Under the pieces are notes generated by a model, which did no database searches, was not told where the DNA came from, and worked only from the letters and a program-made list of their open reading frames with translations. Of a DNA stretch of 64,000 nucleotides, positions 870 to 60,081 are shown piece after piece; position 1 is the first letter of the stretch; each line of letters opens with the position of its first letter. The stretch comes from Chitinophagales bacterium (lineage in GTDB: Bacteria; Bacteroidota; Bacteroidia; Chitinophagales; BACL12): contig JAWKLB010000001.1 in NCBI GenBank assembly GCA_041392955.1, forward strand, positions 37,344-101,343, written 5' to 3'. Made by a program: the position numbers and the translations under genes.

Positions 870-903
870 TTTGAATATATATTGCAACCCCGCTCCGCAC
901 GCT

Positions 904-1067
904 CTGCAAAGTCTCCAGACTTGCAATAATGCACTGCTCTGCAAAGTCTCCGACTTGCAGCACGCACTACTGCTCTGCTAAGTCTTCAGACTTGCAGCAC
1001 CCACTACAGCTCTGCAAAGTCTCCGACTTGCAGTAATGCACAGCTCTGCAAAGTCTCCGACTTGCCG
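904..1067 (+). repeat. Array of 5 GTCTCC-core palindromic units (REP/BIME-like)
   Basis: Units CTGCAAAGTCTCC(A)GACTTGCAG start at 904, 939, 975, 1012 and 1046 (period 34-37 bp). The array lies directly downstream of the stop at 869. Confidence 0.9.
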
Positions 1068-2624: not shown

Positions 2625-3728
2625 ATGCCACTCTATATGGACATCCACAGCGTTCCGGGCGTCAAGTCGCGGGATGTTGCTGAAGCACATCGCATGGACC
2701 TGTTGCATCAGGGGGAATATGGATGTAACTGCATGACCTACTGGATAGATGAGGATAGAGAAACCATTTTTTGTCTGATCGAGGCTACCGACAGAGATGC
2801 CGTTAAGAACATGCATAGCAAAGCGCATGGACTGGTGCCGCATAAGATCATTGAAGTGAGCAGCAATATTGTGCAATCTTTTTTGGGCAGAATATATGAC
2901 CCGGATGATGCCGTCATGGAAAATGGCCTCAAGGTATTTGCCAATCCGGGCTTTCGTGTACTCCTGATCGCAGAGACCATGGATCAAACTCTGATGCGGA
3001 GCCACCTTGGAACGGATGCAGCAAATACCTTGATCGCGACATTCAACGCTGAGGTCAGAAAGCAGTTATTGTTGCATAATGGAAGCGAAGTGGAACACCC
3101 GGGAGAAGGTTTTCTGGTTTCTTTTGCATCTGCCTCACAGGCCGTGAAATGCACCCTGGCCATTAAGGACCAATTGCCTGAAGAAGTTGCGCAATCTCTG
3201 GATCTGCATATGGCCATCAATGGTGGTGAGCCCATTGAGAAAAGCAACAATCTGTTTGGCGATGCTATACAGTTCGGACATTACTTGTGTTCTATTTTAA
3301 GCAAAGAAAGAGTGGCATTATCTGCCCAGATAAAAGAACTCGCTTCTAAAGAACTGGTGCAAAATCAGAAAGGTCGTTTGTACATATTATCGCAAGCCGA
3401 TGAAGATCTGCTGAAATTATTGTATGCTACACTCGAAGAGAAATATGCCGACCAGTATTTCGATCTCTCTGAATTTTCCCGCGCCATGGCCATGAGCCAA
3501 ACGCAGTTGTATCGCAAGCTGACCACACTCACCGGACACGCCTCCAATGCATTGTTAAAAGAATTCCGCCTGGAAAAGGCAAAGGAATTTATGCAGAAAG
3601 GAATCCATTCTATCTCTCAGGTAGCCTTTGACACAGGCTTTTCCAGTCCTTCCTATTTTACCAAATGCTTTAAGTCCAGATACGGACTCTTGCCCATGGA
3701 ATATATTGAGCTGCTGCAACGGCAGTGA
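2625..3728 (+). CDS. Transcriptional regulator: N-terminal DUF4242 domain, central degenerate class III cyclase-like domain, C-terminal AraC-type HTH
   Basis: The N-terminus MPLYMDIHSVPG...AEAHRMDLLHQGEYGCNCMTYWIDEDRETIFCLIEA...HSKAHGLVPHKIIEV is paralogous to the two downstream genes. The middle has GEGFLVSFASASQAVKCTLAIKD and GDAIQFG. The C-terminus QVAFDTGFSSPSYFTKCFKSRYGLLPMEY is an AraC HTH. Confidence 0.7.
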   Translation: MPLYMDIHSVPGVKSRDVAEAHRMDLLHQGEYGCNCMTYWIDEDRETIFCLIEATDRDAVKNMHSKAHGLVPHKIIEVSSNIVQSFLGRIYDPDDAVMENGLKVFANPGFRVLLIAETMDQTLMRSHLGTDAANTLIATFNAEVRKQLLLHNGSEVEHPGEGFLVSFASASQAVKCTLAIKDQLPEEVAQSLDLHMAINGGEPIEKSNNLFGDAIQFGHYLCSILSKERVALSAQIKELASKELVQNQKGRLYILSQADEDLLKLLYATLEEKYADQYFDLSEFSRAMAMSQTQLYRKLTTLTGHASNALLKEFRLEKAKEFMQKGIHSISQVAFDTGFSSPSYFTKCFKSRYGLLPMEYIELLQRQ

Positions 3729-3888
3729 TAGCAGAAGTATTGTACACCAAGTGTCTGCATGAATTTTACCATCCTTTGGACAGATTTTACCATGCCGGTG
3801 CCATGGAATGGTTGATTTGTTACAGCCGGGGAGCATTTCCCGCTCTTTCTTTGCTCTTACAAAAACAAACAAATCAAAATCAATAATT

Positions 3889-4173
3889 ATGAAAACGTAT
3901 TTGATCCAAAGGAATCTTCCCAATGCGGGAACCCTCACACTCGAACAAAAAATTTCCATTGCACAACGCTCCTGCGCCGTGATAGAAGAACTTGGCCATG
4001 ACCATTTGGTTTGGGACCACAGCTATATCACCGCTGATAACCTGTGGTGTGTATACCAGGCAGAAAATGAAGAAGTATTGCGTGAGCATGCGCGCCGCGG
4101 TCCTTTCCCGCTCGACAATATCTTCGAAGTGAAAGGAACTTTCAGTCCGGCAACTGCAGAATTAGTAGCATAA
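3889..4173 (+). CDS. DUF4242 domain protein (SCO4226-like), stand-alone, cytoplasmic
   Basis: I moved the start to the in-frame ATG at 3889 (MKTYLIQRNLP...), because the upstream extension is low-complexity. The sequence is about 94 aa with WDHSYITADNLWCVYQAENEEVLREHARRG and has no signal peptide. Confidence 0.65.
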   Translation: MKTYLIQRNLPNAGTLTLEQKISIAQRSCAVIEELGHDHLVWDHSYITADNLWCVYQAENEEVLREHARRGPFPLDNIFEVKGTFSPATAELVA

Positions 4174-4207
4174 AAAATTATTCAGGCAAAAAGTAAAACG
4201 TACTACA

Positions 4208-4828
4208 ATGAAAAAAAGAACAAGCATACTCGCGATCCTCTTTATACAATGCATCGCGCTTTCCGTTCATGCACAAACAAGTGCAGATAATTCCGGCACA
4301 CAGCATTTATATCTCGATGTCCATAAACTAGAACCCGGCTCCGTAACTTTCTCCGATGTGGAGGCTGCACATCAGAAAGATCTCGCAACAGAGGCAAAAT
4401 ATGGAGTTCAGTTCCTGAAATTCTGGGTAGATGAAAAAGAAGGTTTGGTATATTGTTTATCTTCTGCATCGGATAGTGCGGATATCAAACAAACACATGC
4501 CGAAGCACATGGTTTGATACCCGATCATATTTATGAGGTTACCGATGGCACCGCCGATCAGATGTTATCCGGCAAGAAATTGTTTTTGGATATCCATTAT
4601 CTGGGTGCAGGAAATGTAACAGCAACCGCGGTAGCCGGTGCACACGAAAAAGATCTTGCAACGCAATCAAAATACGGTGTGCACTTTATCAACTATTGGG
4701 TAGATGAAGCCGAAGGTGTTGTGATCTGTCTTTCACAGGCCGACGAAGCAGAAGATGTGATCAAAACACATACAGAAGCACATGGCCTCATCCCGACAGA
4801 AGTATTGGAAGTGCAGGAAGGTATGTAA
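4208..4828 (+). CDS. Secreted protein with two tandem DUF4242 domains
   Basis: Signal peptide MKKRTSILAILFIQCIALSVHAQ. Two internal repeats follow: LYLDVHKL...AAHQKDLATEAKYGVQFLKFWVDEKEGLVYCLS...HAEAHGLIPDHIYEV and LFLDIHYL...GAHEKDLATQSKYGVHFINYWVDEAEGVVICLS...HTEAHGLIPTEVLEV. Confidence 0.7.
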   Translation: MKKRTSILAILFIQCIALSVHAQTSADNSGTQHLYLDVHKLEPGSVTFSDVEAAHQKDLATEAKYGVQFLKFWVDEKEGLVYCLSSASDSADIKQTHAEAHGLIPDHIYEVTDGTADQMLSGKKLFLDIHYLGAGNVTATAVAGAHEKDLATQSKYGVHFINYWVDEAEGVVICLSQADEAEDVIKTHTEAHGLIPTEVLEVQEGM

Positions 4829-4896
4829 CCGGACAGCAATGCATTACTTTCTATCACCATCTGCCCATTAAAATATTTGGAGTAAAATATGATTAA

Positions 4897-4932
4897 ATGG
4901 CACCCGTTATGTCGGGTGCCATTCGTTTTTTT
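4897..4932 (+). terminator. Rho-independent terminator
   Basis: ATGGCACCCG-TTATGT-CGGGTGCCAT is a perfect 10-bp stem, followed by TCGTTTTTTT. Confidence 0.75.
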
Positions 4933-4948
4933 CATCCGCTCTTCCGCT

Positions 4949-5239
4949 CTGCAAAGTCTCCAGACTTGCAGTAATGCACAGTTCTGCAAAGTCTCCAGAC
5001 TTGCAGCACGCTCTGCTCTGCAAAGTCTCCAGACTTGCAGCACGTTCTGCTCTGCAAAGTCTCCAGACTTGCAGCACGCTCTTCCGCTCTGCAATGTCTC
5101 CGACATGCAGTAATGCACAGCTCTGCAAAGTCTCCAGACTTGCAGCACGTTCTGCTCTGCAAAGTCTCCGACTTGCAGCACCGCTCTTCCGCTCTGCAAT
5201 GTCTCCGACATGCAGAACCATTTCCTGGTCTCCGACCAG
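4949..5239 (+). repeat. Array of 8 GTCTCC-core palindromic units plus one short-stem relative
   Basis: Units start at 4949, 4984, 5018, 5052, 5089, 5123, 5157 and 5194. A short relative, CTGGTC-TCC-GACCAG, lies at 5225-5239. Linkers are drawn from three recurring sequence types. Confidence 0.9.
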
Positions 5240-5374
5240 CTTATAAAGCCTTCGGTATTATACATATTAAAGTACAAAAGCATCACACGCTTTTCATATT
5301 CTACTCCAATTGTAACATCTTTTAGTTACATTTGATATGCGCATGTAAATTCAAATTCATTAAAAAATAATATT

Positions 5375-7540
5375 ATGTTTTTTTACCGTTCAGCAAGTGT
5401 CCGGAATGCCTTATTCTTTTTTTGCATCTGCGTTTTATCTACTGTTGGCAATGCCCAGGCACCGGCAATACAATGGGAGCATTTATATTGTGATGGTCCC
5501 TATAATGATGCGACTTTTGTTCTGATGAATGATGGTGGAGCTGTTATTGGAACTTCTGCAAAAACAAATATATATTGTGAAAAATCCGAATATGGGGAAG
5601 GTGGTTATGATTACTGGATATATAGAATAGATTCAATTGGAAATATCATATGGCAAAATGTGATCGGAGGCTCGGGTGATGATAAACTTTCTTGTATAAA
5701 TAAAACCAGTGATGGCGGATTTATTTTAGCCGGAGCTTCAAATTCGCCGATATCAGGAGATAAAACTGAACCTCGTCAGGACTTGACCTATCCTTTTTCT
5801 GATGATATGTGGATTATTAAACTCGATTCAGTGGGAAACATACAATGGCAAAATACAATTGGTGGAAATTATGGAGAATGGGATGCATATATTGAACAGA
5901 CTACGAGCGGCGCTTATATATTGAGCTGCACTTCAAATTCTCATTTATCGGGAGATAAAATGGAAGATGTAATTGGGGGCACTACAAATGACGATTTTTG
6001 GATATTAAAGCTGAATCCGTCCGGAAATATCATGTGGCAAAATACAATTGGCGGTACGGAAAATGATTGGGTAAGTGCCGTGCATCAATTGCCCGATGGT
6101 GGTTATATATGTGCGGGTACATCCGCATCTCCGATATCCGGTGATAAAACAGAAGCCAATTTAACTCCAGGGTATACTGATTACTGGATCGTTAAATTGA
6201 ATAATGGCGGTGATGTTGTATGGGATAAAACCCTTGGTGGTTTATATAGTGATTGGTCAGCTGATATCATACGCGAAGATGATGGCACATTTACATTAGG
6301 AGGTTCGGGTGGTAACTATTTTGGTTTGAATTTTCAAGTGCTCCGTTTAAGTGCGGATGGTGAACTTATTTGGGAACATATATTGGATGCACCTAATTCG
6401 GATTTGAAAAGTATAAGCAAGACAATGGACGGTGGGTATATATTGGGAGGCTCTTCCAGTACGGATTATTGGACAGATAAAACGGATCCGAATAAACCTG
6501 CAAATGATTATGGATGGGAAGGTTGGGATATGTGGGTGGTTAAAACAGATTCTATGGGCAACCATGTTTGGGATAATGCCTTGGGTTCCGGTGATGATGA
6601 TGGCGTTGCATTTGTTCGGGAGACGGCAGATGGTGGATATCTGGTGAGTGGTTATGCCGGACATGATGATGAAGGAGATATATCTGATAAAGCTTCGTTA
6701 TACGACGGAACCTGGATCGTTAAATTGGCGAGTGCCGCCTGTGTGCCAACCATTGAATTATGCAATGGTATAGATGATAATTGCGATGGTATTGCCGACA
6801 ATGGTGTTGTAGAGAGCATTGTTGTATCGCCTGCCGGTCCGGTAACGTTTTGCAAAGGAGAGAGCGTTGACCTGAACGTTGTATCCTATACAGGCACCGG
6901 TGTGCAATGGAAAAAAAATGGTGAAGATATTCCAGGTGCTACGGACATAACTTACACGGCCACCAAAACAGGATTATATACATGTCAGACAAGCAGCGAT
7001 TGTGGCTTTGCTATTTCTTCCATCATCGATGTGACAGCAAACAAAATTCCAAATGCCAGTATTGATGCAGATGGACCTGTCACATTTTGCAGTGGTGATA
7101 GTGTAACATTGATCGAGACTCCATTTGGCGGATGCTCCTATCAATGGTATATAGGACATACACCAATACCCGGTGCAACAAGCACCTCCTTTGAAGCTTT
7201 TGCTGATGGCAATTACAGATGTGCCGTAACCAAAGTGGCCACGGGATGCACGGGAATTTCCAATAAGATCACTGTATCAGTTCCGTGCAGGGAAACAAAT
7301 GATCCATCCTTGCAAGATGTATTGCTATACCCAAATCCCACGTCAGATCTGTTATTTGTATCCACTTCTTTTACAGCTTTTGAATACCAGGTTACAGATA
7401 TGCCGGGTGCATTAATAGCAACCGGCATTTCGGATGAGAGCAACGCCATTTGTCCTGTTTCTGCATTGCAACCGGGTTGTTATTTTCTTACCTGTATATC
7501 AAATAACAAGATCTGCACAGTATCCTTTATTAAACAATAA
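5375..7540 (+). CDS. T9SS-secreted repeat (propeller-like) protein with MopE-like Cys motif, two Ig-like modules and type-A sorting domain
   Basis: It has a signal peptide. About 8 repeats of the pattern DGG(Y/F)IL.G.S.S..SGDKTE....DYWI.KL...GN..W...IGG follow. Then come CNGIDDNCDG and two modules of FC.G(E/D)SV.L...W..NG..IPGAT. The C-terminus LLYPNPTSDLLFV... is typical of a T9SS CTD. Confidence 0.8.
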   Translation: MFFYRSASVRNALFFFCICVLSTVGNAQAPAIQWEHLYCDGPYNDATFVLMNDGGAVIGTSAKTNIYCEKSEYGEGGYDYWIYRIDSIGNIIWQNVIGGSGDDKLSCINKTSDGGFILAGASNSPISGDKTEPRQDLTYPFSDDMWIIKLDSVGNIQWQNTIGGNYGEWDAYIEQTTSGAYILSCTSNSHLSGDKMEDVIGGTTNDDFWILKLNPSGNIMWQNTIGGTENDWVSAVHQLPDGGYICAGTSASPISGDKTEANLTPGYTDYWIVKLNNGGDVVWDKTLGGLYSDWSADIIREDDGTFTLGGSGGNYFGLNFQVLRLSADGELIWEHILDAPNSDLKSISKTMDGGYILGGSSSTDYWTDKTDPNKPANDYGWEGWDMWVVKTDSMGNHVWDNALGSGDDDGVAFVRETADGGYLVSGYAGHDDEGDISDKASLYDGTWIVKLASAACVPTIELCNGIDDNCDGIADNGVVESIVVSPAGPVTFCKGESVDLNVVSYTGTGVQWKKNGEDIPGATDITYTATKTGLYTCQTSSDCGFAISSIIDVTANKIPNASIDADGPVTFCSGDSVTLIETPFGGCSYQWYIGHTPIPGATSTSFEAFADGNYRCAVTKVATGCTGISNKITVSVPCRETNDPSLQDVLLYPNPTSDLLFVSTSFTAFEYQVTDMPGALIATGISDESNAICPVSALQPGCYFLTCISNNKICTVSFIKQ

Positions 7541-7555
7541 CCCGCTCTGCACGCT

Positions 7556-7775
7556 CTGCAAAGTCTCCGACTTGCAGCAAACCGCTCTGCAGGCTCTGCT
7601 AAGTCTCCAGATTTGCAGCACTATTCCCGGGTCTCCGACCCATTTTTAACACGCACTGCAAAGTCTCCAGACTTGCAGCACGCACTACTGCTCTGCAAAG
7701 TCTCCAGACTTGCAGCGCTAATCCCGGGTCTCCGACCCATTTTTAACACGCTCTGCTATGTCTCCAGACTTGCAG
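7556..7775 (+). repeat. Composite array: 5 long GTCTCC-core units interleaved with 2 short-stem units
   Basis: Long units start at 7556, 7596, 7656, 7693 and 7753. Short GGGTC-TCC-GACCC hairpins followed by ATTTTT lie at 7629-7641 and 7726-7738. The higher-order period is 97 bp. Confidence 0.9.
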
Positions 7776-7883
7776 CATCAACCCTGTCTCTCACCCACAT
7801 TAACCATCTCCCCAAAAAAATTATCTCCAAACATTTGCGTAGTCAAATAACTACATATATATTTGTAGTCAAATAGCTACATA

Positions 7884-9960: not shown

Positions 9961-10023
9961 TCCTGGTGTACCTTTGTGCTGATTCTGTCATAGCGGCCTC
10001 GCCGGATACAAATGAAATGATGT

Positions 10024-10602
10024 ATGAACCCTAAAGCAAATTTCTTCTTCGATAAACCGACGCAGTGGCAAAAAGAATATGCCAAAATGCGCAGCATCGC
10101 ACTGGATTGTAATTTGGTGGAAGATGTAAAATGGGGTTGTCCCTGCTATACCCTCAACGGTAAAAACATAGTTCTTATTCATGGCTTCAAAGAATATTGC
10201 GCCTACTTGTTCTTTAAAGGTGCTTTACTCAAAGACACCGATAAGCTTCTGATCCAGCAGACTAAAAATGTGCAATCACCCAGGCAGATCCGCTTCACGA
10301 ACCTTAAACAGATCAAAGAGCTGGAAAAAGTACTGAAGACATATATTTTTCAGGCGATAGAAGTGGAAAAAGCCGGATTGAAAGTTGTATTAAAAGAACC
10401 CGAAGCTTTCGACATGGCGGAAGAATTTGAAATACAGCTGAGCAAAAGTGCAAAGCTCAAAAAAGCATTCTATGCATTGACTCCCGGCCGCCAGCGTGCC
10501 TATCTGCTGCATTTCTCCCAACCCAAGCAGGCAAAGACGCGGGAAGCCAGAGTGCAGAAGTGCATTCCGGCAATTATGCAAGGGCGGGGTTTGAATGATT
10601 GA
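10024..10602 (+). CDS. YdeI/OmpD-associated (DUF1801-related) family protein
   Basis: WQKEYAKMRSIALDCNLVEDVKWGCPCYTLNGKNIVLIHGFKEYCAYLFFKGALLKD, plus a C-terminal segment LTPGRQRAYLLHFSQPKQAKTREARVQKCIPAI, is typical of the family. Confidence 0.6.
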   Translation: MNPKANFFFDKPTQWQKEYAKMRSIALDCNLVEDVKWGCPCYTLNGKNIVLIHGFKEYCAYLFFKGALLKDTDKLLIQQTKNVQSPRQIRFTNLKQIKELEKVLKTYIFQAIEVEKAGLKVVLKEPEAFDMAEEFEIQLSKSAKLKKAFYALTPGRQRAYLLHFSQPKQAKTREARVQKCIPAIMQGRGLND

Positions 10603-19312: not shown

Positions 19313-19942
19313 ATGCGCACATTGCTTGTCTTTGTTTTTGGGATTCTCAGCAGCACTCTCCTTAGATCTCAGGTCGGTTTAGGTGTTATTCAGGTGGATG
19401 TACAAACCACTTTTCAGATAGACCTTTTCGCAAAGTTGAGTGATACTATTCCGGCAAAACAATTGAATTTTGGTTTCGACGAGGAATCGTATACTATGGA
19501 TCTTGCAAATAGGGATTCGGTGGACACATGGTTTCATCCGGAAGCTTATTTTCCCGATTACGATATTTTTCTGCTGAGATGCATGGATACCCTGAGCGGC
19601 AGATATTTAATAGAGGTCGATAGTGGAACACATGCGCAATATTGGATCCCTGCCGCTGCTACCTATACATTCAGAAGTTGGAAAGATTTCCTTGAAAATG
19701 TGCTTACGATAGAGCGCTCAAATCCACAACCTATCTATACAGTACCTGATGAAAAGGCTTCTACATTGAAATATGATGGCCAGGATTGTTTTAGTGTAAA
19801 ACAAGTGCAGGGAGCCTGGATGGAGATCACCACCTTCGGACCATGTCTGGAGAATGAATGGACCGACAGTACACTTGCCTCCGGCTGGATCAAATGGCAT
19901 GATGGCCATACATTATTGATCAACTATTACCTGATCTATTAA
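19313..19942 (+). CDS. Hypothetical secreted protein
   Basis: Signal-like N-terminus MRTLLVFVFGILSSTLLRSQ. No family recognised. Confidence 0.5.
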   Translation: MRTLLVFVFGILSSTLLRSQVGLGVIQVDVQTTFQIDLFAKLSDTIPAKQLNFGFDEESYTMDLANRDSVDTWFHPEAYFPDYDIFLLRCMDTLSGRYLIEVDSGTHAQYWIPAAATYTFRSWKDFLENVLTIERSNPQPIYTVPDEKASTLKYDGQDCFSVKQVQGAWMEITTFGPCLENEWTDSTLASGWIKWHDGHTLLINYYLIY

Positions 19943-19949
19943 TCCCGCT

Positions 19950-20049
19950 CTGCAAAGTCTCCAGACTTGCAGAACTTTATTCAGGTCTCCGACCTGCATG
20001 CTCTGCAAAATCTCCAGACTTGCATAACCTTATTCAGTTCTCCGACCGT
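19950..20049 (+). repeat. Two long plus two short GTCTCC-core palindromic units
   Basis: Long units lie at 19950-19972 and 20003-20025. The short unit CAGGTC-TCC-GACCTG lies at 19982-19996. A degenerate unit CAGTTC-TCC-GACCG lies at 20035-20049. Confidence 0.85.
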
Positions 20050-22120: not shown

Positions 22121-23293
22121 ATGCAATTTTTACCTTTGTATGGATATATGCCAGGCTACACAGGACCCGAAGACATATTATATATTTCCGGAATAGTATT
22201 ATCTCTCTTCCTTTCTTTTATTTTATTTTCTAAAAATAAAAAGACGACGCCCGATATCATCCTCGGGATATGGCTGTTGGTTTCCGGTGCCGATCTGTTC
22301 ACCTTCTTTTTATTTTTTACCGGTGCATATACGCACATGCCCGCTGTTACGGCGCTTGGTTTCCCTATGCCACTCCTGCAGGGACCCTTCTTATTTTTAT
22401 ATACAAAGTATCAAACCGGAAACAATGCTTTTCGCAGGAAGGACCTTTTGCATTTTGCACCGGCTTTGTGTTCCCTTCTGATGTTTTTCCCTTTTTATTT
22501 GCTTTCATATGCCGATCAGGTAAGGGTGTTTCAGGAAGAAGGGAAAGGATATATGGTGCAGATGTCGGTCAATGTGATCGCCATTATGGTATCCGGCGTA
22601 ATATATATTGTTTTGTCGATGCGGCGCTTGCTTTCTTTTCGCAAAAAGATCGTCGATCGCTTTTCCAATACGGATAAGATCCGTTTCAACTGGTTATTAT
22701 ATCTTATTATTGGTATTGCATGTATTTGGGTCGTGATCCTGTTCGTAGGAGAGGACCACTTGATCTTTGCTTCTTCGGCATTATTTATTTTATGGCTTGG
22801 GTATTACGGTATTAAGCAATCACAGGTGTTTAATCAGCATGCCGAGGTGGACTGGACCTATTTTACAACGAGCCAAGACCATGTGCAGGAAAATGAGATG
22901 GATGGATCCGAGCACACTAAGGTAAAATACAGCCGTTCTGCGCTCCAGGCAGAAGAGGCAATCAGGATACACAATGCGCTGCAAAAACGGATGGCGGAGC
23001 AAAAACCGTTTACGGATCCGGAACTCACGCTCGATGCACTTGCAGCCATCTTACAGGTACAACCCGACCACCTGTCGCAGGTGATCAACAGCCTGGAAGG
23101 AAAAAATTTCTACGATTATATCAATACCCTGCGGGTAGAAGAGTTCCTGCGCAAAACGCAGAATGGGGATGACATCCGTTATACCTTGCTTGCACTCGCA
23201 TTCGACTGCGGGTTCAATTCAAAGGCATCCTTCAACAGGAACTTTAAGAAGATCATGGGCACCTCGCCGAGTATGTATTTGAATAAAGGTTAG
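22121..23293 (+). CDS. Membrane-anchored AraC family transcriptional regulator
   Basis: The N-terminal half has about 6 TM segments. The C-terminus LLALAFDCGFNSKASFNRNFKKIMGTSPSMY is an AraC HTH. Confidence 0.8.
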   Translation: MQFLPLYGYMPGYTGPEDILYISGIVLSLFLSFILFSKNKKTTPDIILGIWLLVSGADLFTFFLFFTGAYTHMPAVTALGFPMPLLQGPFLFLYTKYQTGNNAFRRKDLLHFAPALCSLLMFFPFYLLSYADQVRVFQEEGKGYMVQMSVNVIAIMVSGVIYIVLSMRRLLSFRKKIVDRFSNTDKIRFNWLLYLIIGIACIWVVILFVGEDHLIFASSALFILWLGYYGIKQSQVFNQHAEVDWTYFTTSQDHVQENEMDGSEHTKVKYSRSALQAEEAIRIHNALQKRMAEQKPFTDPELTLDALAAILQVQPDHLSQVINSLEGKNFYDYINTLRVEEFLRKTQNGDDIRYTLLALAFDCGFNSKASFNRNFKKIMGTSPSMYLNKG

Positions 23294-23510
23294 GGGTTAA
23301 GGGTTAGGGGTTAAGAGTTATGGGTTAGGTGTTAGGGCCGTTATTGTCCATAGTACTTACTTTATGTCAGACTGTGACTGCGACTGCGACTGAGACTGGA
23401 CCATTGGTCATGAGGGAAAGATAATTGTTTAAAGCACTGCCTTCACATGCAGGCAGACATTCACCACTCACCCCCAAAGGGGTCCAAAGGACATTCACCA
23501 TTCACCATTT
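23288..23510 (+). repeat. Mosaic intergenic element: telomere-like (GGTTAGG)7, AGTACT anchor, (GACTGY)5, mini-hairpin pair, (CATTCAC)n
   Basis: GGTTAGG GGTTAAG GGTTAGG GGTTAAG AGTTATG GGTTAGG TGTTAGG lies at 23288-23336 and contains the AraC stop codon. AGTACT lies at 23352-23357. GACTGTGACTGCGACTGCGACTGAGACTG lies at 23369-23397. CCCC-AAA-GGGG and GTCC-AAA-GGAC lie at 23472-23492. Confidence 0.85.
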
Positions 23511-38536: not shown

Positions 38537-38657
38537 CAGCGGAGATCGTTGTAAAGTCGGGATTTCCGGAGGTCGGGACGTCTTGATGTCTGCTTATAAA
38601 CGGATACAGGAATTTCAAGTTGCCTATTGTCCACCGCAATTGCCCACTCTCTATCAG

Positions 38658-38741
38658 CTATTCACCATTCACCAATCACTATTCACCATTTACTATTCAC
38701 CATTCACCATTCACCATTCATCTTTCCTCATTCCTCATTAC
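38658..38741 (+). repeat. Twelve-unit period-7 array (CYATTCA/CATTCAC type) ending 13 nt before a start codon
   Basis: The units are CTATTCA CCATTCA CCAATCA CTATTCA CCATTTA CTATTCA CCATTCA CCATTCA CCATTCA TCTTTCC TCATTCC TCATTAC. Confidence 0.9.
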
Positions 38742-47309: not shown

Positions 47310-47605
47310 AATTCAATGTATCCGGATCAAAAACGATCAATACGGACTTATGTTGTACAAGGTATGCAATTAATGTAAAGAATAAAAAGTGCGGCGTCTC
47401 TTGAATGGAAAATGGCGCATGGTTGAAAAGTGAAGTCCCATTTTATAGCCGGTGAGCTGAACTCACTAATCCTGATTCCGCAAGAAGTCGCGGTTACATC
47501 TCCTTTAAATAATTAGTAATGATATTTAAATCGGCCCTGACCTTCCTAAGAGTCCTTTGGACTTTACCATTTCAAGTTATGTCTACCAATAACGACGAAC
47601 AAACG

Positions 47606-47825
47606 CACTATAGAAATTCCCCCTTGACCAGCCCACACACCCTGACCCCTGACCTTTTCTCAATACATAAAACAATAATAACCATCTAACTCACTACAGA
47701 AATTCATTCTTGAATAGGATGCACACCCTGACCCCTGACCTTCTCACAATACATAAAACAATAACAACCATCTAACTCACTATAGAAATTCCCCCTTGAA
47801 TAGGATGCACACCCTGACCCCTTTA
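47606..47825 (+). repeat. 86-bp tandem repeat, 2.5 copies, abutting the stop codon of the tail-fibre-like gene
   Basis: Units lie at 47606-47691, 47692-47777 and 47778-47825 (truncated). Each contains CACCCTGACCCCTGACC. Confidence 0.9.
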
Positions 47826-50800
47826 TTACTTACTTATCACCATCTGTTTCGTTGCAACCACTTTACCATCCACAACCAATGAATACGCATACGTACCACT
47901 TGCCATATTGCCGGATTCTATAACCAGATGTGTTTCATCACACGCGATCGGAATAACGGTGATCACTTTGCCTTCAGCACTGTTCACGATCATGATGCTT
48001 GCATCTCTGCAATCTTTGGGAATACGGAATGGTATCATAGTGGTATTATCAAATGGATTTGGAATATTCTGACCCAATAATGCATTTTCAGGATCAGCAG
48101 CCGAAACGCTTATGATGCCGTCATTGAGTTTTGCATCGGAGGCCTGCGCACTGAGTTCGGCTATTTGTGCCTTTAATGCCTCAATTTCTTTTTGCTGTTC
48201 TTCCAACTGTTCATTTTGCGCAGTGTTTACTGAATCTAATTCCTGTGCAGCTTTTACCAGTGGCACCACAAATTCCGCGTAACGCAATCCGTATAAATTA
48301 TTTTCATTTTGCGGTTTGTCCACTCCGGAAAAATCATAACCGATCTGCTGTGCTGCTTTCTCCACATCCTGCGCAATAAAGCCGGTATAAGTGATCTGTG
48401 CCTTTGCATCCAATGCTTTTTTATTGATCTGTTGAGTAACCTTGTCTTCGGAATAAATGCTGTCGCTTAGGATGCGATCCTCTTCCAGATGTCCGCTTAA
48501 AGCTTCCATTTTTAATGTATATGTTACCGGTTGAAGCAATTTGATGAACTCCAATCCCGGTACATCTTCCTGCACATTCTCTTTCATTCTTTCATCACTG
48601 ATATTTGTCCAGCCTGCATATCCGCCGATACTGGTCACTGAGCTATTCCCGATACGCACCTGATTGTCGGCATCGGTCCTTGCATTATAGCCAAGTGCTG
48701 TACTGTTGGTGAGTGAGAATGCGCCGTTATTTGCCGCATAACATCCCAGATACGTGCAGTTCGTATTGAAACTGTAAGAGCTGCCCGTTGACAATCCGAT
48801 ACCAATATTATATGAACCGGTGGTGTTGAATTCCAGAGCACCATTCCCCAGGGCAACCTTATTATGACCGGTGCTGTTATAATATAATGCCGACGCGCCA
48901 ACAGCGACATCAAACCCGCCGCTGGTATTAGAGTACAAGGCAGATGATCCCACACCTGTATTGGAACCTCCGTTGACGTTGCTGTACAAAGTGCGATATC
49001 CTATTGCTGTATTAATGGAACCGGTATTGGTGTATAAACTTTGATATCCTATCGCAGTATTATTCGAACCATTCGTATTGGAGTAAGATGCATTAAACCC
49101 GATGGCCGTATTGAACCATCCGTTATTATTCAGATAACTCGCACGGATACCCATAGCTGTATTGTATGAACCATTCACATTACTGTATAGTGTGGAGTAA
49201 CCAACGGCGGTATTTCCTGCGCCGGTAGTATTGCTGTATAAACTCTGACTTCCAATGGCAGTAAATTCATTTCCTGTTGTTGAACTGTATAAGGCATTTA
49301 CGCCCAATGCAGTAATTCCAATCCCGGTTGTATTATTATATGCTGCATAAGAGCCAACACCCGTGTTGCTGTCGCCGGTAGTATTGCTGCGCATGCTGTG
49401 GTCGCCGATCGCAGTATTACCATCACCATCTGTATTGTTATACATGGAAAATAAACCCATGGCCGTATTTGAATTTCCCGTTTGATTGGAATAGAGTGCA
49501 GATGAACCAAATGCTGCATTGAACGATCCGGTAGTGTTTAATTGCAGTGCCGAGTTTCCTGTGGCTGTATTGGAACTCCCGGTGGTATTTGTATACATGG
49601 CACGAAAACCTATTGCAGTATTCAGATCGGCCGTTGAATGATATAATGCCTCACTACCAACGGCAGTGGAATATGAATTTCCGGCTAAAGTGTAAGAAGC
49701 TTTATGGCCTATTGCCGTGTTATTGGTTCCGGTGGTGAGATTAAATAACGTAGAATCCCCCACGGCAACATTGTAGGTGGAAGTCCCGGCGTTGTATAAA
49801 CTATAACTTCCCACGGCTGTGTTATTCCAACCATATACACTGGTAGATAAAGCATATGCGCCGAGAGCTGTATTAAATTGTCCGCTCGCATTTTCTTTCA
49901 GGGAATAGGAACCAACGGCGGTATTGTATGAACCGATGCCATTGCTGTACATCGACAGGGCACCGATGGCCACATTTTCATTTCCGCCATGCGTATTATA
50001 CATGGAAAAAGTGCCGAAGGCGCTGTTGTTATTACCATCTTCATTTAAATACAGCACATCTTTACCCATACCGGTATTATTTGAACCTCCAACATTATTA
50101 TATAATGCCTCAGCACCCACGCCAACATTATTCAAGCCGGTGGTATTTGAATACATGGCATGACTTCCTATTGCTGTATTCTGACTACCCGTTGTGTTTA
50201 CCCACAAACTGGCATTTCCTACCGCGACATTTTCACTACCACTTGTATTATAGAGCATGGCCCATTCACCCAATGCAGTATTTTCATTTCCGTCTATATT
50301 GAATCCGAGTGCCGACAATCCAACAGCAGTATTCAGGGATCCCGTAGTATTGGTTTGCAAACTTCCGCTGCCTACTGCGGTATTGGAGTATCCTGTAGTA
50401 TTGGCATACATAGCATTTGATCCGATGGCCGTATTATAGTATGCAGTTTGATTAGCACGCAATGCCTGACTGCCTAAAGCGGTATTTTCTTCTCCTGTTG
50501 TATTATACCACATACTCTCATTTCCCACCGCGACATTATCATTGCCCGTTGTATTGTACGTCATGGCATTTTGCCCGATCGCAGTATTTCTATTGCCCAT
50601 TGTATTGAAAGCCAGTGTGGAAATACCAACGGCAGTATTCAGAGAACCGGCAGTATTATATTCCATGGAGCCACTCCCGACGGCAGTATTGGAATAACCA
50701 TCTACGTTATCGCGTAATGCGTCCGAACCTACTGCTGTGAGATAATAATGTGTTTCATTTGTTTTCAATGCATTATTTCCAATGGCTGTATTGCTGCCTC

Positions 50801-51788
50801 CGGTTGTGTTGTTGAGCATTGCAGAACTCCCCACTGCCACATTACTGCTTCCTGTTGTATTATTATAAAATGCAGAATCTCCTGCAGCAAGATTGTCTGT
50901 GCCGGAATTCCCCAAAGCGATACCTGCTCCGATAAATATATTTTGTGACCCCTGATTGGAAATAAATCGTTTATTATCCAGAAATACATATCCGTCGAGA
51001 TACAGATCCTTCCATGTATTTACCGTGCTTCCTAAACTATACGTAAAGGTGGTATTTGGAACAAGTGATTGATTGATCGCTGTTGCGCTCAGGTTAGATA
51101 AACTTGTATTCGCACCGCCACCACCACCTGCAACAGTGGTCCAGGATAAAATACCTGCGCCGTTCGTTGTCAGTACCTGTCCGCTTGTACCGTCCGCTGC
51201 CGGTAATACCCAAATGAAATTTGCAGCGATATTATCTGCTGCCTTGAAACCGGTATAATTATTTCCGTTCGCCGCTAATTCATTGAATCGCAATTCACCT
51301 GTTGCTCCGGCCAGCACATCGTAAGGTTTAATGCGGATGGCTCCGGGCACAGTGGGTGTGATATCTATCATGGCTCCCGGTGTTGCGGTGGAGCCGAGAG
51401 ATAATTTATTTTTGATATAGGCATTGCCGCCGGCTGTCGACCAGAAAACAGGTGCTCCCGTTCCGTCGCGGAACTCATACCGCGAATTCGTGTTGCTGAA
51501 AACCAAACCATAATTCGGATTTCCGGAATAGCGGAAAGCATAATGATCACCAGCAACCAAAAAATCGGCGTTGCCGCTGAAACTCAGATCGCCATCGAGT
51601 CCAAAAGCCGAATGATCGGCACCGGTTCCGAATTGGGAAATGCCACCTTCTACCTGCAAAAGAGTGGATGGCGTCACGGTTCCTACGCCCACATTTCCAC
51701 TGGCAGGAAATGTATTTGTTTGTGCACCAAGGAACAGCGGCGAGATAAAAAGGAAAACACTACATAAGCGGCGGAGCATTTTTTTCAT
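47826..51788 (-). CDS. Tail-fibre-domain adhesin-like protein: signal peptide, about 900 aa of NTA.G repeats, S74-type intramolecular chaperone domain, coiled coil, T9SS sorting domain
   Basis: The start is set at the Met giving MKKMLRRLCSVFLFISPLFLGAQT. There are dozens of roughly 14-aa repeats (NTAVG..AL..NTTG..). The motif GGYAGWTNISDERMKENV...YTGFIAQDVEKA...YGLRYAEFVVPLVKAAQEL matches the phage tailspike chaperone domain. The C-terminus QNIPNPFDNTTMIPF...GTYAYSLVVDG is a T9SS CTD. Confidence 0.8.
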   Translation of the reverse strand: MKKMLRRLCSVFLFISPLFLGAQTNTFPASGNVGVGTVTPSTLLQVEGGISQFGTGADHSAFGLDGDLSFSGNADFLVAGDHYAFRYSGNPNYGLVFSNTNSRYEFRDGTGAPVFWSTAGGNAYIKNKLSLGSTATPGAMIDITPTVPGAIRIKPYDVLAGATGELRFNELAANGNNYTGFKAADNIAANFIWVLPAADGTSGQVLTTNGAGILSWTTVAGGGGGANTSLSNLSATAINQSLVPNTTFTYSLGSTVNTWKDLYLDGYVFLDNKRFISNQGSQNIFIGAGIALGNSGTDNLAAGDSAFYNNTTGSSNVAVGSSAMLNNTTGGSNTAIGNNALKTNETHYYLTAVGSDALRDNVDGYSNTAVGSGSMEYNTAGSLNTAVGISTLAFNTMGNRNTAIGQNAMTYNTTGNDNVAVGNESMWYNTTGEENTALGSQALRANQTAYYNTAIGSNAMYANTTGYSNTAVGSGSLQTNTTGSLNTAVGLSALGFNIDGNENTALGEWAMLYNTSGSENVAVGNASLWVNTTGSQNTAIGSHAMYSNTTGLNNVGVGAEALYNNVGGSNNTGMGKDVLYLNEDGNNNSAFGTFSMYNTHGGNENVAIGALSMYSNGIGSYNTAVGSYSLKENASGQFNTALGAYALSTSVYGWNNTAVGSYSLYNAGTSTYNVAVGDSTLFNLTTGTNNTAIGHKASYTLAGNSYSTAVGSEALYHSTADLNTAIGFRAMYTNTTGSSNTATGNSALQLNTTGSFNAAFGSSALYSNQTGNSNTAMGLFSMYNNTDGDGNTAIGDHSMRSNTTGDSNTGVGSYAAYNNTTGIGITALGVNALYSSTTGNEFTAIGSQSLYSNTTGAGNTAVGYSTLYSNVNGSYNTAMGIRASYLNNNGWFNTAIGFNASYSNTNGSNNTAIGYQSLYTNTGSINTAIGYRTLYSNVNGGSNTGVGSSALYSNTSGGFDVAVGASALYYNSTGHNKVALGNGALEFNTTGSYNIGIGLSTGSSYSFNTNCTYLGCYAANNGAFSLTNSTALGYNARTDADNQVRIGNSSVTSIGGYAGWTNISDERMKENVQEDVPGLEFIKLLQPVTYTLKMEALSGHLEEDRILSDSIYSEDKVTQQINKKALDAKAQITYTGFIAQDVEKAAQQIGYDFSGVDKPQNENNLYGLRYAEFVVPLVKAAQELDSVNTAQNEQLEEQQKEIEALKAQIAELSAQASDAKLNDGIISVSAADPENALLGQNIPNPFDNTTMIPFRIPKDCRDASIMIVNSAEGKVITVIPIACDETHLVIESGNMASGTYAYSLVVDGKVVATKQMVISK

Positions 51789-51929
51789 AATCATGATTTT
51801 TGTGCATTGCATAATAGAATAAGGACAAACACAAAAATATCCGCCCGCTCAGAGCCATGAAATACCCGAATCCGAGTATGGGAAGGTTAGGGCTGGGGCA
51901 GGAGCAGGGGAAGTCACAGTCACAGTCGG

Positions 51930-52160
51930 ACTCAATTATGAGCTCTTATTGTTTAAAAAAGTACTGCCCTGACCAATGACTTCTGACCCCTAACCCTTGT
52001 CATATCGCAGCAGCAGCCCAACTCAATTATGTATACTTATCCTTTTAAAAAGTACTGCCCTGACCCCTGACCCTTGTCATATCGCAGCAGCAGCCCAACT
52101 CAATTATGTGCACTTATCCTTTTAAAAAGTACTGCCCTGACCCCTGACTCCTCTCACCTT
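51930..52160 (+). repeat. Tandem repeat (91, 77 and about 61 bp units) upstream of the tail-fibre-like gene
   Basis: Units start at 51930, 52021 and 52098 with ACTCAATTATG...AAAAAGTACTGCCCTGACC... Units 1 and 2 differ in length by 14 nt, i.e. two heptamers. Confidence 0.9.
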
Positions 52161-52203: not shown

Positions 52204-52236
52204 CGGCCCTAACCCCTAACCCCAACCCCTAACATT
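52204..52236 (+). repeat. C-rich telomere-like heptamer array (CCCTAAC type)
   Basis: The sequence is CGGCCCTAACCCCTAACCCCAACCCCTAACA. The junction CGGCCCTAAC is shared with the inverted array at 23321-23340. Confidence 0.85.
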
Positions 52237-59831: not shown

Positions 59832-59909
59832 AAATGTCCGCCGGTAGGCGGACCACCCGTAGGGTGGAGGAATCAGTAATCAGTAATCAGTAATAAGTAA
59901 TAGTTAATA
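59832..59909 (+). repeat. Second copy of the GC-rich double hairpin, followed by (AGTAATC)6
   Basis: AAATGTCCGCCGGTAGGCGGACCACCCGTAGGGTGGA lies at 59832-59868 and has one substitution versus 9688-9724. Heptamers AGGAATC AGTAATC AGTAATC AGTAATA AGTAATA GTTAATA lie at 59868-59909. Confidence 0.85.
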
Positions 59910-59942: not shown

Positions 59943-60012
59943 AGTACTCATTATTTCATCAGTCCTAACGCTTAACACCTAACCCCTAACCCATAACTCT
60001 TAGCCCATAACC
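59943..60012 (+). repeat. AGTACT anchor plus C-rich telomere-like heptamer array, inverted copy of 23288-23357
   Basis: AACACCTAACCC(CTAACCC)ATAACTCTTAGCCC matches the reverse complement of 23296-23327, except for one extra heptamer and one substitution. Confidence 0.8.
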
Positions 60013-60081
60013 CCCTTCCCTCCACCGAAGCAAAAAACATTTTCAGTAATCATACACACTCTTAGTAGCACCCCGACCAAT

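Follow-up and report, generated by a model that had tools for sequence, protein, structure and literature searches.

Hairpin arrays in four intergenic regions of the window

The window, by which we mean the whole 64-kb stretch of DNA analyzed here, is ordinary Bacteroidota chromosome, with genes for T9SS-tailed proteins, regulators of the AraC and ArsR types, methyltransferases and the like. No transposase was seen among the window ORFs that were scanned. Further, the next-best NCBI homologue of a flanking protein, beyond the Chitinophagales bacterium MAG, was just 62% identical.

Four intergenic regions within 20 kb contain tandem arrays of approximately 24 units, long and short, and the genes contain none. 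The string GTCTCCGAC occurs 11 times in the window, in every case on the + strand, where 0.10 copies are expected from shuffled sequence; all copies are confined to the four arrays and there are none elsewhere in the window. The building block of the arrays is a 34-nt long unit, CTGCAAAGTC-TCC(A)-GACTTGCAG, and the spacers between units are 9-15 nt long and mutually related. The arrays, which we treat as candidate clusters of repetitive extragenic palindromes (REPs), and their components are as follows.

891..1067, + strand: REP array 1, five long units and no intact short unit; covariance-model matches at 934-998 and 1007-1068
904-926, 939-960, 975-997, 1012-1033 and 1046-1067, + strand: long-unit stems of array 1
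4935..5239, + strand: REP array 2, eight long units, then one closing short unit; 34-nt period and 105-nt higher-order period
5189..5243, + strand: composite REP, GCT foot, long hairpin CTGCAATGTC-TCC-GACATGCAG, linker AACCATTTC and short hairpin CTGGTC-TCC-GACCAG
5225..5239, + strand: short unit CTGGTC-TCC-GACCAG, 6-bp stem, loop TCC
7541..7795, + strand: REP array 3, the series long, long, short plus ATTTTTAACAC twice (97-nt period), closed by one long unit and one decayed short unit
7629..7641, + strand: short unit GGGTC-TCC-GACCC, ATTTTT directly 3'; composite match 7591-7646, 27.9 bits
7726..7738, + strand: short unit GGGTC-TCC-GACCC, duplicate of 7629-7641; composite match 7688-7743, 31.5 bits
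19943..20049, + strand: REP array 4, the pair long, short twice, 53-nt period, second copy decayed
19982..19996, + strand: short unit CAGGTC-TCC-GACCTG; composite match 19945-20000, 33.1 bits
20035..20049, + strand: decayed short unit CAGTTC-TCC-GACCGT, folding lost

The short units quoted in a preliminary description of the window, at 5225, 7629, 7726, 19982 and (decayed) 20035, are all present. That description stressed that the copies differ in stem. Three complementary stems do exist, but GGTC..GACC is common to all of them, and what varies is one pair (G:C, T:A or A:T), with an additional outer C:G in two. Because the copies at 7629 and 7726 lie within one 97-nt higher-order duplication, they represent one event, and three independent intact short units remain. 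The order long then short was also correctly described, although the distance, given as about 10-13 nt, is a stem-to-stem gap of 9-10 nt occupied by an A/T-rich linker. A third short unit, decayed, probably closes array 3 at approximately 7781-7795; the covariance-model match there (7748-7790) scored just 13 bits. The evidence for short hairpins inside the window is real, yet it comprises few independent events.

Intact short units had predicted folding energies of -6.7 to -7.3 kcal/mol as RNA and about -3.8 kcal/mol as DNA, and the decayed copy at 20035 was unfolded. The corresponding values for long units were -8.5 to -9.6 kcal/mol (RNA) and -5.2 kcal/mol (DNA). The composite at 5189-5243 was predicted to fold as two hairpins (DNA, -11.4 kcal/mol; z -5.2).

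Array 2 starts 8 nt past a canonical terminator. Array 3 starts 1 nt past the stop codon of a 721-aa T9SS-tailed gene, and array 4 likewise 1 nt past the stop codon of gene 19313-19942. The first long stem thus begins 15 nt (array 3; 7538-7556) or 7 nt (array 4; 19940-19950) past the stop codon. REPs of E. coli that lie comparably near a stop codon are reported to influence translation termination.

At the array flanks, we sought GTAG/CGTC tags, target-site duplications and a common insertion target, and found no convincing pattern; the flanks are loosely AT-rich. A nonamer, CTTATAAAG, lies immediately 3' of arrays 1 and 2 (1088-1096, 5240-5248), and may be part of the 3' end of the element or its target. 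In related loci (L042, L066 and L093), the short hairpins have a TTTATAA/TTTAA flank on their 3' side.

Independent short-read assemblies of the same organism (L002, L004) contain identical units, and their contigs break within the arrays; the arrays are therefore not an assembly artefact. Logan contigs L002, L003 and L004 terminate inside REP arrays, so that assemblies of this organism are fragmented by the repeats. GTCTCCGAC also lies within the Ion Torrent A adapter (…GTGTCTCCGACTCAG), which accounts for the 747 papers that match the string, and string searches of papers and raw reads return the adapter. An adapter artefact was ruled out, as the units occur both in independent assemblies and in the finished genomes of isolates.

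The window contains other repeats. Degenerate heptamer/hexamer tandem repeats (GGTTAGG, GACTGC, ATTCACC, CCCTAAC, AATCAGT, CCTAACC) are found in intergenic positions at 23284-23398, 38653-38739, 52207-52233, 59871-59901 and 59964-60014; they are similar to cyanobacterial short tandem heptamers and unrelated to the REP units. Tandem repeats at 47587-47822 (86 nt x2.7) and 51983-52148 (77 nt x2.2) both contain CCCTGACCCCTGAC, and bracket a 1328-aa minus-strand gene (47826-51812) with a Peptidase_S74 chaperone domain.

Relatives of the hairpins in other genomes

The exact 22/23-mer of the long unit was searched in 185,579 species genomes and in JGI metagenomes. The species genomes yielded one copy, which lies in L001, a Chitinophagaceae MAG, and the JGI metagenomes contained no match, so the exact sequence is lineage-specific. 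An Rfam search of the window gave no match at the gathering score and chance-level matches at E up to 10.

A relaxed metagenome search, in which the inner hairpin alone was specified (AGTCTCC(N)GACTT, then AGTCTCC 19-25 nt on), retrieved 74 loci. Approximately 35 were true hairpin loci, which share the apex while their stems, though complementary, are quite different. About half of the 74 loci and all seven viral matches were set aside as chance hits or coding sequence; among them, L047 and L062 represent a 36-nt coding repeat. L059 and L068, whose long units are nearest those of the window among the metagenome matches, consist of a long-unit array closed by one short unit, the same form as array 2. 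The occurrence of stem-swapped copies elsewhere had been set beforehand as the test on which the preliminary description could fail, and such copies were found in other organisms.

A second hairpin type, which shares the apex GTCTCC(N)GAC but has GGAGT as its foot and an outer stem of 5 nt, was found in GC-richer contigs (L007, L008, L009, L015, L020, L025, L035, L046 and L071). In L015, L020 and L046 it lies approximately 130 nt from a tRNA-Met gene.

Composite hairpins flank RAYT genes

RAYTs are REP-associated tyrosine transposases, which are HUH/Y1 enzymes. A RAYT homologue adjoins the hairpins in eight of the approximately 35 loci (L006, L018, L025, L041, L042, L050, L061 and L066). The L006 ORF has four + strand hairpins on its left and four inverted hairpins on its right; it matches Pfam Y1_Tnp, and its sole PDB relative is E. 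coli TnpA_REP (4ER8). Homologues adjoining hairpins were detected in the seven further loci using tblastn. All four ORFs scanned (L006, L018, L025 and L042) passed the NCBIfam model NF047646, 'REP-associated tyrosine transposase', with 86-112 bits (cut-off 80). The GGAGT-foot hairpins of L025 flank a distant RAYT, which is 29% identical to that of L006 and scored 112 bits against NF047646. The RAYT gene was absent from the search pattern, and the association between hairpin and RAYT is therefore unbiased. The motifs SNHIHL, FWQ and YIHLNPV of the L006 ORF, with approximately 82 aa from HUH to Y, fit RAYT subclass 2.6 as characterized in PMC6006769.

A second set of loci was retrieved with the RAYT protein alone. 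It comprises Flavobacterium aquiphilum (L086), Arenibacter palladensis (L087), Algibacter agarivorans (L088), four Chitinophagaceae MAGs (L089-L092) and Foetidibacter luteolus (L093). The same hairpins, inverted, lie on either side of the gene in these loci, in the layout long hairpin, linker, short hairpin, RAYT gene, inverted unit. In the first three species, the hairpins inverted around the RAYT gene have the form GCT-NNGCAAA-GTC-TCC(N)-GAC-TTTG. In the REPtrons (a RAYT gene with its flanking REPs) of these protein-fetched loci, the element nearest the gene is always the short hairpin. The left composite ends 12-24 nt upstream of the start codon, and the right, inverted composite overlaps the stop codon. 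Altogether, a RAYT gene flanked by inverted copies is a feature of 16 related loci.

The L042-type RAYT clade belongs to Chitinophagaceae (Terrimonas, Foetidibacter luteolus and MAGs), a family in the same order as the source MAG of the window. The 64-kb window itself contains no RAYT gene detectable by tblastn (E up to 1), and we therefore infer the cognate enzyme of its arrays.

Five Chitinophagaceae loci have a single RAYT gene within the trp operon, with flanking hairpins. It lies in the trpF/trpB interval in L089-L092 (gene at 10001-10567 or 3709-4275) and 3' of trpA in Foetidibacter luteolus (L093). Such a syntenic position fits a domesticated, vertically inherited enzyme. In Algibacter agarivorans (L088, 3690-4560), a REP and approximately the first 100 nt of the RAYT gene are repeated three more times downstream together with a common segment of approximately 250 nt, which looks like REP-associated segmental duplication.

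Both hairpins retain pairing while stem sequences change

Across 43 distinct long units, we found the rule GCT + 7 nt + GTC + TC[C/T](N) + GAC + 7 nt. The long units of the window obey this rule with one bulged A, and their GCT lies exactly 7 nt ahead of GTC, as in 30 units of other loci and in Table S1 of PMC6006769. A long unit of L091, GCT|CTGCGAA|GTC|TCC|GAC|TTCGCAG, differs from that of the window at 2 of 26 positions. The GCT foot is present in the long units of the window and absent from its short units.

In the Chitinophagaceae-type loci, 3-4 nt separate each long hairpin from a conserved linker, TATG(T/C)T(C/T)T, and a hairpin of 5-8 bp completes the composite, which measures approximately 61 nt. 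The stems of the short hairpin include CATAGTC/GACTATG, TATAGTC/GACTATA, TTGTAGTC/GACTACAA, CAAGTC/GACTTG, CAAAGTT/AACTTTG and CTGCTCGTC/GACGAGCAG, and further CCCGTC/GACGGG, TGAGTC/GACTCA and CATGTC/GACATG.

In 30 long hairpins from outside the window, 96.3% of the cells of the ten-pair stem were paired, compared with at most 39% in slid controls. The five outer pairs showed 55 compensatory double changes, where 13 were expected, and none of 500 shuffles reached this number. The proposal that the stem of the short unit only needs to pair was borne out in a set of 24 short hairpins, drawn from the window and approximately 14 further organisms. In these, 82.8% of cells were paired (slid controls, at most 39%), and there were 37 compensatory double changes against 13 expected, again with 0 of 500 shuffles as high. 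The apex pair of the short hairpin alternates between C:G and T:A. There is selection for pairing in both hairpins. G.T and A.C mismatches, compared as a guide to the functional strand, numbered 5 and 3, respectively, and showed no strand preference.

The companion proposal, that of specific recognition of the core, is plausible in the case of the long hairpin: all eight RAYT-seeded loci keep its apex, GTC-TCY(N)-GAC. Because the metagenome search specified the apex, conservation of the apex in that set is by design, and the eight RAYT-seeded loci alone are unbiased in this respect. The proposal does not extend to the short hairpin, whose loop varies across the family (TCC, TCT, TTC, TAT, GCA, ACA and TAA; one copy reads CCGCC-TGC-GGCGG).

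A covariance model from other organisms detects the window arrays

The preliminary description had recommended a covariance-model search with long and short units in relatives. We used 16 composites, all taken from other organisms, to build a model (R1) and scanned the window with filters off; R1 matched both the window arrays and the RAYT flanks. In the window, matches were found in the four arrays and on the + strand only, and nothing outside the arrays had E<1. The four composites of a long and a short unit scored 28-34 bits (E 3e-4 to 3e-3 under a shortened calibration), with both hairpins aligned; the match at 5189-5243 scored 33.8 bits (E 2.9e-4, shortened calibration). On the RAYT flanks, E values were 5e-10 to 1e-6 (shortened calibration), and the matches abutted start and stop codons. 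The R1 alignments also revealed that the short units of the window have no G[C/T]T foot and that their degenerate linker appears to be 4-5 nt shorter than in relatives. These short units may no longer be substrates.

Termination of transcription and other explanations

The hairpins could function chiefly in the transcript, either as intrinsic terminators or by stabilizing the 3' ends of the upstream genes, the short unit with ATTTTT being a small terminator as was suggested earlier for the 7.6-kb copies. We consider this unlikely. All four window arrays do lie just 3' of + strand genes in sense orientation, with arrays 3 and 4 starting 1 nt past the stop codon, but across the family orientation is mixed: the upstream gene is on the same strand in 20 cases and on the opposite strand in 12 (naive ORF calls). 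We therefore rejected gene orientation as a sign of an RNA role. A consensus terminator scan lists 7629 and 7726 under a lax consensus (5 bp, 4 GC, A+T5); because it found 27 sites where 17.4 were expected, this listing carries little weight. The suggested terminator is not general, since A+T5 follows only the two duplicated 7.6-kb copies, which amount to one independent short copy, and the short units at 5225 and 19982 have no T-run. A TTTA-type flank does occur 3' of several short hairpins in relatives. The recurrence of TTTA(A)/TTTATAA suggests that ATTTTT is possibly the 3' flank of the element rather than a U-tract. The stems of the short units are weak (about -7 kcal/mol as RNA). Array 2 already lies 3' of a strong canonical terminator at 4893-4927, so that transcription is probably over before it. 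Further, the same composites are inverted around RAYT genes and lie directly 5' of RAYT start codons, and a terminator role leaves the association with RAYT unexplained.

The terminator at 4893-4927, between gene 4208-4828 and array 2, is bidirectional-looking and reads GGCACCCG-TTAT-GTCGGGTGCC, then TTCGTTTTTTT.

It is still less probable that the short units have no role of their own and derive from long units by erosion, with a complementarity that is a remnant, or was re-established by intrastrand template switching (quasipalindrome correction), and not selected. CTG-GTCTCCGAC-CAG does equal a long unit without its middle stem segment, decayed copies exist at 20035 and approximately 7781, and the window offers only three independent copies with essentially one differing pair; long-long pairs, too, fit the composite model. 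However, a short hairpin at a fixed distance past the linker recurs in at least 14 other organisms, with a wide variety of stems that covary strongly, and in REPtrons fetched by protein alone it is invariably proximal to the RAYT gene.

It is highly improbable that the hairpins, tandem and constant in loop as they are, serve another factor with no link to a transposase (an RNA-binding protein on UCC loops, a DNA-binding regulator, or CsrA, sponged by antisense GGA/UGGA loops of the - strand that we take to resemble those of CsrB/RsmZ-type RNAs), as no Rfam family matched, neither a promoter nor a terminator was in evidence for an antisense RNA, which leaves the CsrA sponge unsupported, and the RAYT association explains the distribution, inverted symmetry and covariation. 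Two other candidates were rejected: integron attC sites, for mismatched architecture, and a CRISPR array, for spacers that are 9-15 nt and interrelated instead of 26-72 nt and unique, and for the absence of cas-like domains among the scanned ORFs.

Identity of the arrays and a proposed mechanism

We conclude, with a probability of roughly 80%, that the four arrays consist of clustered REPs cognate to the subclass 2.6 RAYTs of Bacteroidota, in which the short unit supplies the second hairpin of a composite. The short units do not stand alone as relatives of the long unit. Each is the smaller and second of two hairpins in a composite REP found at the flanks of RAYT genes, placed either nearest the RAYT gene or at the end of an array. 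The arrays are a fresh example of a known REP class and not a new kind of element, and the modestly novel part is the two-hairpin module.

The basic unit consists of a long hairpin with a 5' GCT foot, a short pyrimidine-rich linker and a short hairpin of 5-7 bp. In related genomes, the RAYT gene is bracketed by inverted copies of this composite, with the short hairpin facing the gene; away from the gene, the composite is scattered singly or occurs as arrays in which an amplified long unit is closed by a short unit, as in array 2. By analogy with E. coli TnpA_REP and the TnpA of IS200/IS605, the hairpins would extrude on single-stranded DNA, and a RAYT would bind them by shape and a few fixed bases (foot and apex), then cut and rejoin nearby. 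Binding, strand choice and cleavage are thus putative for subclass 2.6 hairpins. If a RAYT reads shape and a few fixed bases, pairing would be constrained while stem sequence would be free, and compensatory changes would follow. The arrays grow by higher-order duplication; slippage or unequal exchange, suggested by the 53-, 97- and 105-nt higher-order periods, would be the route. Effects on mRNA 3' ends would be secondary.

Our leading guess for the linker and short hairpin is a cleavage-site or guide function. More tentatively, and at odds that we put below even, the directed two-hairpin module (GCT-foot long hairpin, conserved TATG(Y)T(Y)T linker, short hairpin) could be the true substrate and propagating unit of subclass 2.6 RAYTs in place of one palindrome or an inverted REPIN, with the linker and short hairpin as the cleavage/joining site and the long hairpin as the amplifiable part.

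Knowledge of REPs and RAYTs comes almost wholly from Proteobacteria, and the accessible parts of the Bacteroidota literature examined merely mention 'atypical secondary structures' beside the RAYT gene. The present analysis provides a concrete sequence and structure rule for Bacteroidota REPs (foot, apex, linker and second hairpin), with covariation and a working covariance model behind it. The rule can be used in annotating Bacteroidota genomes, in explaining why short-read assemblies break in such intergenic regions, and in designing binding and cleavage experiments with subclass 2.6 RAYTs.

Comparison with known REP systems

The REP sequences and REPtrons of RAYT subclass 2.6 (Bertels group 5) of Bacteroidetes were described by Quentin et al. 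(2018, BMC Genomics 19:475; PMC6006769). These REPs, like the window family, have no GT[AG]G, a GCT-type foot, TCC/TCT loops, inverted copies flanking the gene and more copies in the genome. The published REPs (Table S1) have a GCT[A/G]G foot, TCC/TCT/TCCT loops and other apices. The accessible part of PMC6006769 contains no description of the composite of long hairpin, linker and short hairpin, of the GTC-TCY-GAC apex or of long tandem arrays, and the exact window sequence is absent from its table. Likewise, we found no description of the two-hairpin module in the accessible portions of the literature examined on REP/RAYT systems.

With the canonical GTAG REPs and BIMEs and E. coli TnpA_REP (PDB 4ER8; Di Nocera et al. 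2013, PMC3733652), the window units share the character of short extragenic palindromes arranged in intergenic clusters, head-to-tail and in tandem. Further shared features are several types per genome that differ in stem and recognition of the hairpin by an HUH Y1 enzyme, the latter putative for the window. In contrast to the canonical REPs, the window units are direct and not alternating, their foot is GCT, and their conserved part includes the apex. No GT[AG]G or CGTC tag was found at the stem foot in the window; CTAC in some spacers and GTAG in L001 have the wrong position and orientation.

IS200/IS605 elements (IS608, ISDra2) resemble the window family in their subterminal imperfect hairpins and, if the analogy holds for the enzyme, in the action of a Y1 HUH transposase on single-stranded DNA with cleavage a few nt away. 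Unlike those elements, the repeats here have no transposase gene of their own, and the RAYT is single-copy and syntenic (trp operon, five loci). NCBIfam places these RAYT proteins in REP_Tyr_transpos and not with IS200.

All window units are direct and on the + strand, and the window contains no inverted REP pair that forms a single long hairpin, as in a REPIN. REPINs, the inverted REP doublets of Bertels and Rainey, nevertheless resemble the window composite in being two-hairpin units that are thought to be mobilized and are tied to a single-copy, vertically inherited RAYT. The halves of a REPIN are inverted and form one long hairpin, whereas the window composite consists of direct, unequal hairpins joined by a conserved linker. 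If the module is the true substrate of subclass 2.6 RAYTs, it would represent a REP architecture and a recognition logic apart from those of the GTAG systems studied so far.
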